From NCBI GenBank assembly GCA_007121075.1, contig SKMK01000020.1:59647-123646 (forward strand): DNA of 64,000 nt. The letters are read 5' to 3'. Below the pieces are notes generated by a model. That model was not told the DNA's origin and searched no databases. It saw only the letters and a list, made by a program, of their open reading frames with translations. The position numbers were made by a program, and so were the translations under genes. This stretch comes from Syntrophomonadaceae bacterium. Its GTDB lineage: Bacteria > Bacillota > Dethiobacteria > DTU022. Positions 27,888 through 35,947 of this stretch are shown piece by piece. Each line of letters starts with the position of its first letter. The first letter of the stretch is position 1.

Positions 27888-27961
27888 TGGCTGCGGGACC
27901 AGGGATCGAACCTGGGCCTGGTGATCCAGAGTCACCCGTGCTGCCGCTACACCATCCCGCA
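27888..27961 (-). tRNA. tRNA-Gln (anticodon CUG), CCA encoded
   Basis: Manual fold of the minus-strand sequence TGCGGGA-TG-GTGT-AGCGGCA-GCAC-G-GGTGA-CTCTGGA-TCACC-AGGC-CCAGG-TTCGATC-CCTGG-TCCCGCA-G-CCA. It has a perfect 7-bp acceptor stem with U1:A72, G73, a 5-bp anticodon stem and a T-loop TTCGATC. The plus-strand ORF 27692-27979 over it is spurious. Confidence 0.7.
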
Positions 27962-31677: not shown

Positions 31678-31980
31678 TAAATAACCTCCGCGGTAAAAGC
31701 AGTAACAAGCAAAAATATTTATTAAATGATATTATAGCTGTTAAATGTAATTATATCAATCATAGAGCGAAATTGTTGTAGAAAAAATTCTTTGCAGCGC
31801 TGTCATGCTGGTTTAGTAGCAGACCTAACATACAAGGGTGTTATAAGGTAAAGGCGGCGTTATAATGCAAAGGCTCCCCCCTATTAGTTTACATAAGATA
31901 CATTATCGGAAGTTAATTCATGTTAGCTAAAGGACCAAAAAGAAGCACCTGCCCCTCTCCCCTGCCCTAAGGCCTGACCC

Positions 31981-33072
31981 TTACACATTTCTTCTCCAGT
32001 GTTCAAGAATAGAAGCAAACGTAGCGCCGCACTGAGGGCAGTCTCCATGGTGCCTGAGAATATAAGTGCAGCGACTGCACTTCAAAGCCGGGATTGGTTT
32101 CCCGCGGTCGGTGTCTTCAGCGCCTGTACCCGGCAAATGTTGCTGTTCCGGGAAAGGGCCGCTTTCCGGATCTCCTTTTTCCGGCCCCTTGCCTGCAGCT
32201 CCCTCCCTGCCGCTTAAATCATCTGGACCGGTGGATCCGCTTGAAGCGGGCCCATTATTAACTGTTTTTTCAGGTTCATTAACCGGATTTTGGCTCTTTT
32301 CTACCATATTATTCCTGTCATTTTCATTTCCTAAATAGTCTATAAGCTCGGCCTCCCCCCTTCTTTCCTCCTCTCTTCCATTTTCCCGGGGGCTTATTTC
32401 AGCGGAATGATCCCCCTGATTTTTATCATGGTTTTCCTCTCCAAAATTTTGTTTAACAGCTCCGGCAGGGGCTGCGGCCGGAATACCGCTTCTCCTGTAG
32501 CCCAGGATATCGTAATAAGTCATGCTGTGCTCTTCGAACAGGTGCTTGAGATAGGCCTGGGTTGTCGATGCGTCTCTGTGGCCCAGGGCGTTTTGAGCCA
32601 GGCGGATATCGTTCGTTTCTTTGATGATGTTGACGGCAAAGGTGCTGCGCAAAAGGTGTGGATGGACGTCCTTGTTTATGCCGGCCTTACGGGCCGTTCG
32701 CTTAACCATTTCCCGCAGGTAGCGGTCTTTAAGGCGCCCCCCTTTAAGGGTGCTAAAAAAATAGCTGCTTCCGGGCAATTGGACCAGGTGCCATTTTTCG
32801 AGAAGGGCAAGGAGCTCATCATCAAGCCACAAAGTACGCTCCCTGGCTGCCCCGCTTTCTGCGACATGGATTGTGCTTTCATTCCAGTTGATATCATTAG
32901 CTCTGAGATCCAGGACTTCCCCGGCGCGCAGTCCCGCCCTGAGCATAAGCATCAGCATACAGAGATTGCGCAGGCCGGTAGGCGCTTTTGGATTGGGAAT
33001 CCTCAACAATGCTGCCTGCTCACTGCTGCTTAAGACTGCTGTTTTTTCCCGGGATGGGTTCATAGTATTCAC
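31981..33072 (-). CDS. tyrosine-type site-specific recombinase catalytic domain fused to a disordered linker and C-terminal zinc ribbon
   Basis: Complete R-HxxR-H-Y catalytic signature (GLRAGE; HPHLLRSTFA; LGHRDASTTQAYLKH). No N-terminal core-binding domain. About 140 aa of G/E/N/P-rich low complexity follows, then CSRCTYILRHHGDCPQCG. Confidence 0.7.
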   Translation of the reverse strand: MNTMNPSREKTAVLSSSEQAALLRIPNPKAPTGLRNLCMLMLMLRAGLRAGEVLDLRANDINWNESTIHVAESGAARERTLWLDDELLALLEKWHLVQLPGSSYFFSTLKGGRLKDRYLREMVKRTARKAGINKDVHPHLLRSTFAVNIIKETNDIRLAQNALGHRDASTTQAYLKHLFEEHSMTYYDILGYRRSGIPAAAPAGAVKQNFGEENHDKNQGDHSAEISPRENGREEERRGEAELIDYLGNENDRNNMVEKSQNPVNEPEKTVNNGPASSGSTGPDDLSGREGAAGKGPEKGDPESGPFPEQQHLPGTGAEDTDRGKPIPALKCSRCTYILRHHGDCPQCGATFASILEHWRRNV

Positions 33073-33341
33073 CGCTTATTTAGTACCTTTAAAATAGAAT
33101 ATGGTATTAATGATGATCTAATTAATTACGGAATTATATCTATATTCTGATCTATTATGGCCTGGTTGTCAAGAAAAAACGGTACTTTATTCAAAAAGCC
33201 AGGATCAACCTTTTAATCTATGTCACTCTTACCCTTTTCCTGGCTCAAGCAGCGGTCCTAACAATACCTGACTTTAAACAAAAACAAAAAGCGCATTGAA
33301 GCGCTTTATGGGTGCTCAAGAAAAAACTAGCAAAAATTTGC

Positions 33342-35326: not shown

Positions 35327-35947
35327 TTGGAACCGTTAACGGAGAAGCAAAAGCGGGTCATGGAGTTTATTGAACAGGAAGTCAGGCGTTGGAACTATCC
35401 TCCCTCTGTGCGTGAAATATGCAAAGCCCTCAATATAAGCTCAACTGCAACTGTACACGGGCACCTGGATACCCTTGAAAGTAAGGGTTACATTTCCAGG
35501 ATGGCAACCAAACCAAGAGCGATCAAATTGATTAAAAGCGCTGATGGTGAAGTTATAGCGGACCCGGAAGAAAGTTGTATTTTTGCTCCTCTTGTTGGAA
35601 GAATCACCGCCGGCCAGCCGATCCTTGCCGAGGAGAACAAGGAAGGCGTTTTTCCTATTCCTTCAGCTATATCAAATGATGAGAATTGCTTTGTCCTCCG
35701 GGTGGCTGGAGAAAGTATGATTGGGGCCGGGATCAACGACGGCGATTATGTGGTTATAAGGCAGCAGAACAGTGCCGAAAACGGGGAAATAGTAGCCGTT
35801 CTGCTTGGAGATGAAGCAACGGTCAAACGCTTTTATGTAGAAAAAGACGGTTACCGGCTGCAGCCTGAAAACGATGCTTTTGAGCCCATTATAACCCGGG
35901 AGATCGAAATTCTGGGCAGGGTAGTCGGTTTATTCCGCCGGGTTTAG
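35327..35947 (+). CDS. lexA: LexA repressor
   Basis: N-terminal wHTH, an Ala-Gly cleavage site and an S24 peptidase Ser/Lys dyad (GESM...VKR). TTG start. Confidence 0.9.
   Translation: MEPLTEKQKRVMEFIEQEVRRWNYPPSVREICKALNISSTATVHGHLDTLESKGYISRMATKPRAIKLIKSADGEVIADPEESCIFAPLVGRITAGQPILAEENKEGVFPIPSAISNDENCFVLRVAGESMIGAGINDGDYVVIRQQNSAENGEIVAVLLGDEATVKRFYVEKDGYRLQPENDAFEPIITREIEILGRVVGLFRRV

Follow-up and report, generated by a model that had tools for sequence, protein, structure and literature searches.

Why would a tyrosine-recombinase homologue without a core-binding domain be kept beside an ordinary dif site? The question is raised by a 64,000-nucleotide (nt) stretch of contig SKMK01000020.1 (assembly GCA_007121075.1, Syntrophomonadaceae bacterium), referred to here as the window. 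In it, a 363-amino-acid open reading frame (ORF) at 31981-33072 on the minus strand, designated REC, encodes such a homologue, followed by a linker and a C-terminal zinc ribbon. The answer that we tentatively favour, drawn from sequence comparison and structure modelling, is that REC may be a domesticated, cleavage-impaired, dif-linked Xer-like accessory and not a self-sufficient strand-exchange enzyme. The features on which the argument turns are listed below, with residue frequencies taken from a census of 98 non-identical REC-family sequences.

31981-33072, minus strand: REC ORF, 363 amino acids, without a core-binding domain (Pfam, NCBIfam, homologue searches, check for upstream stops)
32533-33033, minus strand: catalytic-fold domain, residues 14-180 (Pfam; predicted local distance difference test, pLDDT, above 90; structure matches; residue census)
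32479-32502, minus strand: post-catalytic segment GYRRSGIP (S195 in 90, G196 in 97 and P198 in 89 of 98; pLDDT 81 for residues 191-200)
32113-32526, minus strand: disordered linker rich in G, E, N, P and S, residues 183-320 (pLDDT, homologue alignment)
31984-32100, minus strand: Cys4 zinc ribbon and amphipathic helix ending in HW (homologue alignment, tail-profile search, model)
31886-31913, minus strand: 28-bp dif, ACTTCCGATAA-TGTATC-TTATGTAAACT (unique in the window, conserved; comparison with Bacillus subtilis dif; GC-skew switch)

The dif site (ACTTCCGATAATGTATCTTATGTAAACT, 31886-31913, minus strand) begins 67 nt after the REC stop codon, on the same strand, and has an 11-6-11 layout in which the XerC-type arm lies nearest REC. 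Its pattern occurs once in the 64 kb, where none would be expected by chance. Against the B. subtilis dif printed in PMC3025954 (ACTTCCTAGAATATATATTATGTAAACT), identity extends to 11 of 11 positions in the right (XerD-type) arm and to 8 of 11 in the left arm. When the intergenic regions of related loci are compared, dif stands out as a block of about 32 bp 3' of REC that is 90-100% identical among loci, far above the coding regions. The GC content of REC is normal and the intergenic regions on both sides are AT-rich; a preliminary description of the locus had recorded the 300-bp AT-rich tract downstream correctly and overlooked the canonical dif inside it.

The pairing of gene and site is constant. 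Each of the 37 species-level genomes with sequence 3' of REC has exactly one dif per locus, with up to 17 kb searched, and the site always lies on the REC strand, 37-165 nt after the REC stop. The pairing persists in loci L010 and L037, where the downstream genes BPL_N and CapA are missing, and linkage in 37 of 37 genomes speaks against the 'dif-independent' resolvase that had been suggested earlier. Across the window, GC skew is positive up to about 28 kb and negative beyond about 36 kb, and the long ORFs converge, running rightward up to about 27 kb and leftward from about 36 kb. This sign change and the convergent ORF orientation together place dif at the replication terminus.

The REC frame opens with GTG, and an in-frame TAA lies two codons 5' of it with more stops further up, so that no longer N-terminus can be read. 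An N-terminal extension or a separate core-binding ORF is thereby ruled out, the upstream intergenic region being ORF-free as well, and with it the objection raised in the preliminary description that an alternative upstream start might encode the core-binding domain. The public gene call of the REC protein (P0001, 341 amino acids) begins at Leu23 (TTG; window 33004-33072, minus strand). This start is doubtful because the Pfam match begins at residue 14, so that the first helix of the catalytic domain would be lost; translation more plausibly starts at the GTG at 33072 or the ATG at 33063.

Pfam Phage_integrase (PF00589) matches REC residues 14-180 (E = 4.6e-34; 118 bits against a cut-off of 27) and the alignment spans positions 3-171 of the 172 in the profile, whereas no SAM-like or core-binding domain is matched by Pfam in REC, nor is one present in any homologue. 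The NCBIfam matches cover the C-terminal halves of their profiles, those of XerC and XerD at positions of about 100-290. In an AlphaFold2 model built with 34 homologues, the catalytic domain (pLDDT above 90) is followed by disorder over residues 183-320 and by a confidently modelled C-terminal module of two strands and a helix (residues 325-363), which reaches pLDDT 88.7 when modelled by itself. Foldseek comparison of the catalytic domain with solved structures gives XerA (5hxy), XerH (5jjv), IntI and XerD as best matches, with E from 1e-12 to 1e-7. Profile searches and structure prediction thus bear out the domain boundaries, and the catalytic domain without a core-binding domain, put forward in the preliminary description.

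Beyond the catalytic domain, the conserved GYRRSGIP segment may be the C-terminal tail which, by analogy with other tyrosine recombinases, contacts the neighbouring protomer. The linker is free to vary in length and sequence, and family proteins range from 265 to 400 amino acids. The zinc-ribbon motif is C332-x2-C335-x9-C345-x2-C348, so that the ribbon predicted at the outset stands, with nine residues and not thirteen between the two CxxC pairs. The C-terminal zinc module has no Pfam family above threshold, no NCBIfam family and no match among solved structures.

The catalytic residues were assigned against Escherichia coli XerD, in a sequence whose numbering agrees with the published R148, K172, H244, R247, H270 and Y279. 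The correspondence and the family census (n = 98) are as follows.

Arg I: XerD R148, REC R49; Arg in 92, Lys in 6
Lysine: XerD K172 (GKG turn of the beta2-beta3 hairpin), REC Ser73/Gly74 (motif ESGAARER); at position 73 Ser in 96, Arg in 1, Met in 1, Lys in 0; Gly74 nearly invariant
His II: XerD H244, REC H139; His in 86, another residue in 12
Arg II: XerD R247, REC R142; Arg in all 98
His III: XerD H270, REC H165; His in 97
Tyrosine nucleophile: XerD Y279, REC Y174; Tyr in 94, Phe in 4

The window protein therefore keeps R49, H139, R142, H165 and Y174, and the earlier statement that all catalytic residues are present holds for these five and fails for the lysine of the beta-hairpin, which is replaced by Ser73/Gly74 and found in 0 of 98 family members. 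In tyrosine recombinases this lysine is the K of the RKHRH pentad (PMC8138268). The nucleophile is Phe in P0015, P0050/P0062, L042 and also P0155, in local alignments free of gaps, and these variants are spread over at least three sequence groups; in L042 the gene is still intact and adjoins a perfect dif. About a fifth of the members have lost the tyrosine nucleophile or other residues of the pentad.

The architecture is a recurrent one. A search of 5.8 billion proteins recovers about 68 clusters (at 90% identity) in which it is found, so REC is not a chance ORF. The view of the fusion as atypical and solitary is upheld, and the window has no other integrase-like ORF. In all family members the catalytic domain begins at the same point, and the tail is nearly invariant (IPAIKCSxCxYILxYQGDCPQCGxSFxxILxHWxKNI) in proteins that diverge down to about 40% identity; the four cysteines and W359 of the zinc tail are present in 98 of 98 sequences. 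A profile of the 43-residue tail, run against 1.84 billion representative proteins, matches only at the extreme C-terminus of the REC family, in 24 clusters at 50% identity, three of which are N-terminally truncated fragments. Canonical two-domain XerC and XerD match REC at only about 30% identity, in the catalytic half alone.

Outside the family, REC is closest to proteins of 190-213 amino acids, 42-53% identical to it over the catalytic domain, which begin and end at the same points. They share the PTGLRNLC motif, end at an F-R-x-G motif equivalent to GYRRSGIP, have neither linker nor zinc ribbon, and keep the hairpin lysine, as GKGxK or, in phage-like contigs, as AKGG. One of them sits among HTH_17 (excisionase-like), ParB-like and toxin-antitoxin genes; others are on IMG/VR viral contigs, near an ORF of about 506 amino acids that looks like a putative terminase large subunit and another large ORF that looks like a putative DNA methyltransferase. 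All match the PHROG 216 'integrase' family. Integrases that lack a core-binding domain are, as these contexts and matches show, to be found in phage-like and mobile-element-like settings. REC looks like a domesticated descendant of such a mini-integrase, one in which the lysine would have been lost and the linker and zinc ribbon gained.

A Dethiobacter-type subfamily also lacks the lysine, has a different zinc tail (KCxCG...CxGCG...RVNFG) and occurs in ordinary chromosomal contexts. No canonical dif was found within 8 kb of these paralogues or of the relatives of about 200 amino acids. Two members of the KCxCG-tail subfamily, P0073 and P0082 (loci L053 and L058/L065), have Thr at Arg I (GITLSEL) in addition to the missing hairpin lysine, so that a conserved gene of the chromosome shows further erosion of the active site. 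We also note that in four Dethiobacter-type relatives (L041:419-1388, L047:1170-2157, L050:7974-8973 and L057:7971-8946) the catalytic domain of about 198 amino acids ends at a stop, and the linker and zinc ribbon (…HAIKCKCG…CPxCG…FYRINF) follow in the +1 frame, overlapping the end of the first ORF. The overlap contains a T6 run (AATTTTTTCG) common to all four, and P0069 is a fused single ORF. The arrangement could reflect programmed frameshifting or transcriptional slippage that gives short and long isoforms.

The neighbours of REC in the window are housekeeping genes: gltX, tRNA-Gln, GT4, CapA, BPL_N, T-box-leuA, lexA, hflX, miaA and mutL. The same slot is occupied in 39 species-level genomes, in the order mutL-miaA-hflX-lexA-leuA, REC, BPL_N-CapA-GT4-(tRNA-Gln)-gltX; these genomes are from uncultured Bacillota, labelled 'Syntrophomonadaceae bacterium' or 'Bacillota bacterium' at NCBI, and many come from soda-lake sediments. 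No phage or insertion sequence genes flank REC in the window or in related loci, in agreement with the earlier picture of a gene of normal GC content among housekeeping genes. Since the slot is shared by 39 species-level genomes, REC is vertically inherited and not currently mobile, and the preliminary description was right to see in it a domesticated recombinase homologue that is neither an ordinary XerC or XerD nor part of a present mobile element.

How REC came to lie beside dif can be read from loci that lack it. An exact scan of Joint Genome Institute (JGI) metagenome contigs for the dif pattern returned 62 contigs. On the gene side, 54 of them extend for 400 nt or more; REC is present in the usual synteny on 22 of these 54 and absent from 32. 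In one REC-less locus (L098) the order is T-box-leuA, about 400 nt, dif, GT4, gltX, with no room for REC and no remnant of it. In five others (L129, L106, L084, L115 and L116) it is hflX-lexA-dif, continued by BPL_N and GT4 in L129 and L106, and in two more (L078 and L120) it is dif-CapA-GT4-gltX. None of the REC-less dif loci on these contigs contains an integrase-like ORF, and in a neighbour-joining tree of the adjacent GT4 protein the REC-bearing loci form one clade with the REC-less loci outside. Because the same dif is at the same position in outgroups that have neither REC nor a nearby integrase, a single ancient insertion beside dif is indicated. In the simplest history, dif was already at this position and a segment of about 1.4 kb, comprising REC and its own promoter, would have entered a single time, with the leuA T-box promoter on one side of it and dif on the other, and been kept in all descendants. 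The distribution is best explained if an ancestor shared by a single clade of alkaliphilic Bacillota acquired REC beside dif and its descendants retained it.

The identical 28-bp dif is also found on contigs without synteny to the window and with no integrase nearby (L073, L075, L093, L102, L105, L107, L126, L132 and others), so this dif variant is common to other bacteria. As REC-less lineages use the same dif and Phe variants keep a perfect one, other recombinases, by inference XerC/XerD, probably act on it, and REC would be an add-on and not the core enzyme. Searches of the window, of the first 67 loci retrieved and of the 62 dif loci from metagenomes turned up no canonical XerC or XerD.

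On the upstream side REC has a putative promoter of its own.

33125-33172, minus strand: putative REC promoter, TTGACA (33172-33167), 17 nt, CAGAAT (33149-33144)

An imperfect palindrome, TCAGAATATAnATATAATTCCGTAAT (33150-33125, minus strand), lies directly after and overlaps this promoter and is strongly conserved in about 20 related loci; it is possibly an operator for autoregulation. Motifs of the TACCG/GGTAC type recur at fixed offsets of about -35, +16 and +36 from a CAGAATA anchor. We do not claim the TTCCG/TACCG motifs near the REC promoter as copies of the XerC arm of dif: their position is conserved, but relative to the AT-rich centre TTCCG has the reverse of the polarity seen in dif. 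A terminator-like hairpin, AAAGCGCTTCAATGCGCTTT, with a T-run (33288-33307, minus strand) separates the REC promoter from the leuA T-box promoter; it has no minus-strand gene upstream of it and falls within the segment that is absent from L098. On the 3' side of REC, the intergenic region contains a sigma-70-like promoter for the downstream operon. The Bacillus-type LexA box, GAAC-N4-GTTC, does not occur in the 64 kb, not even 5' of lexA (35327-35947, two genes from REC). Its absence is uninformative on SOS control of REC; the lineage's SOS box is presumably different.

How might a cleavage-impaired recombinase act at dif? In active tyrosine recombinases Arg II and His III hold the scissile phosphate, and as both are essentially invariant in the family, DNA binding is probably retained. 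The recombinase-fold domain would bind DNA at or next to dif, as adjacency suggests, and/or REC would join the Xer synaptic complex through the usual protomer contacts and the conserved RSGIP tail. Held on a tether of 50-170 residues, the zinc ribbon may make another contact, either with DNA or with a partner (XerC/XerD or the FtsK/SpoIIIE translocase, for example), and this contact would stand in for the clamp that the absent N-terminal domain would otherwise form. REC would then modulate Xer recombination at dif, or access to dif, and would not resolve dimers by itself. According to Karaboja et al. (2021), XerD is reportedly an SMC unloader in B. subtilis. As a sequence-specific SMC unloader, XerD is a precedent for a non-catalytic Xer role at the terminus, as cited in PMC12322038. 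A bolder and rather unlikely version is that the domesticated mini-integrase is a catalytically disabled, dif-bound 'pseudo-recombinase', whose tether would recruit or block XerC/XerD, FtsK/SpoIIIE or SMC; it would then represent a new class of regulator, one that acts on dimer resolution or on the handling of the terminus, or else a guard that keeps phages and islands which exploit Xer away from dif.

Several points weigh against a cleavage-impaired accessory. Five of the six catalytic residues are kept in about 80% of members, Tyr in 94 of 98, and because this retention exceeds the obvious needs of a purely structural role, residual or partner-assisted catalysis is possible. The lysine position is itself subject to alignment ambiguity, as HMMER and MAFFT place K172 on Ser73 or Gly74, one residue apart, although Lys is at neither; a basic residue just past the hairpin turn, either the R/K at 77 in most sequences inspected or the invariant R79, might substitute for it. 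Binding of dif by REC is deduced from adjacency, and the presence of XerC/XerD in REC-bearing genomes is likewise deduced. The partner of the zinc ribbon is a guess because the ribbon has no detectable homologue, and since the Dethiobacter paralogues are not beside a canonical dif, the combination of this fold with a zinc ribbon does not itself require dif.

These points lead directly to the nearest competitor, that REC is a catalytically competent dif recombinase, acting either as a stand-alone single-recombinase Xer or as a third recombinase with XerC or XerD, the zinc ribbon replacing the clamp. Tight linkage to dif, as in known single-recombinase systems, fits this proposal, as do the R, H, R, H and Y of the window protein (Tyr in 94 and Arg II in all 98), the structural proximity of the catalytic domain to XerA and XerH, and the lack of xerC or xerD in the window and the fetched loci. 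We nevertheless consider it unlikely. The hairpin lysine is missing from all 98 sequences, yet is kept by the closest mobile-element relatives; at least three lineages with a Phe nucleophile keep the gene and a perfect dif, and another enzyme would have to resolve dimers there. Known single-recombinase Xer systems use divergent sites, whereas this dif is of the ordinary XerCD type, identical in REC-less outgroups and unrelated bacteria. Moreover, the NCBIfam scores fall far under the equivalog cut-offs for XerA (NF040815, 131 bits versus 220), XerC (TIGR02224, 104 versus 335), XerD (TIGR02225, 103 versus 330) and XerS (NF003462, 57.5 versus 267). It is about equally unlikely that REC is a domesticated or persisting remnant of a dif-integrating element whose present role is unrelated to dif, for example as a sequence-specific DNA-binding regulator of its own promoter or of other genes. 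The single ancient insertion that separated dif from the leuA T-box promoter, the relatives in mobile elements and phages, the eroding catalytic residues, the zinc-tailed Dethiobacter paralogues in ordinary chromosomal contexts without dif, and the conserved palindrome over the REC promoter, which suggests an operator, would all suit such an origin. Adjacency to dif, however, has been kept in every descendant, to about 40% identity and despite gene loss on the far side; the intact ORF and invariant zinc ribbon in about 100 sequences are unlike a decaying remnant; and there is no second dif-like junction, each locus having one match.

Two further proposals, both going back to the preliminary description, fare worse. 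A FimB/FimE-like invertase that flips the AT-rich promoter region of the BPL_N-CapA-GT4 surface-polymer operon, and so produces phase variation, would share with invertases of about 200 amino acids the restriction to a catalytic domain, and the sigma-70-like promoter described above serves genes that are surface-related. Its NCBIfam support is a sub-threshold match to the tyrosine-type invertase family (NF007370) at positions 6-176 of 200, with 59 bits against a cut-off of 221. Searches at two scales found no inverted repeats bracketing either intergenic region, and none that is meaningful within 6 kb on either side; four assemblies, obtained independently from the same strain or a sister strain, show no inversion, and the region is collinear in these and in all relatives. 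The only conserved element between REC and the downstream operon is dif, and the REC-dif pair outlives BPL_N and CapA in L010 and L037, which leaves the phase switch very improbable. Least credible of all is a remnant integrase from an element that targeted the tRNA-Gln gene 4 kb away, at 27888-27961. No att-like repeat of the tRNA is found near REC, the best match being 13 nt inside the GT4 gene; GT4, CapA and BPL_N, which lie between, are conserved chromosomal genes present also in REC-less outgroups; the tRNA belongs to the same conserved synteny; and the insertion point adjoins dif and not the tRNA.

Dimer resolution at dif is among the best understood site-specific recombination systems, with two-domain Xer recombinases, FtsK and a few phage-encoded activators. 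If the reading of REC as a cleavage-impaired accessory is true, it would add a new accessory layer to Xer recombination; alternatively REC would be a minimal recombinase whose tethered zinc ribbon does the work of the core-binding clamp. It is a clean example of an integrase of the mobile-element type that became fixed beside dif, with a defined insertion point and REC-less outgroups available, and the proposal is testable in vitro with one protein and a 28-bp site. Full-text literature searches did not turn up any account of a zinc-ribbon tyrosine recombinase at dif.

REC resembles XerC and XerD (CodV and RipX in Bacillus) in its catalytic fold and RHRH-Y residues, and the XerD arm of the adjacent dif is that of B. 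subtilis; it differs from them in having neither the N-terminal SAM-like domain of about 100 residues nor the lysine, and in an identity of about 30% that is confined to the catalytic half. Like the FimB/FimE invertases of about 200 residues, REC is essentially a catalytic domain, and the PRK09870 profile (200 positions) aligns from position 6; unlike them, it has no invertible segment or inverted repeats at its locus, carries a zinc-ribbon tail that invertases lack, and scores far under their cut-off. The mini-integrases of the PHROG 216 type (190-213 amino acids) share its short N-terminus and F-R-x-G end-point, but they keep the lysine, have no linker or zinc ribbon and do not lie next to dif, whereas REC does. 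An element integrated at dif in the manner of the integrative mobile elements exploiting Xer (IMEX) would also differ, as there is one dif per REC locus, there are no mobile genes, and REC is fixed in the whole clade. With B. subtilis XerD as SMC unloader, as cited in PMC12322038, REC would share the position of an Xer-family protein at the terminus with a role beyond strand exchange, although that XerD is a normal two-domain protein at binding sites of its own.

The closest parallels in gene arrangement are XerS/difSL of streptococci and lactococci and XerH/difH of Helicobacter and Campylobacter, in which the Xer gene lies beside the dimer-resolution site (reviewed in PMC5357621). As in these systems, the REC gene is immediately beside the terminus site, and its catalytic domain is nearest to those of XerA and XerH. 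XerS and XerH, however, are two-domain proteins with a full catalytic set that act on atypical sites, whereas REC has neither a core-binding domain nor the lysine, ends in a zinc tail, and adjoins an ordinary XerCD-type dif that is present also in lineages without REC.

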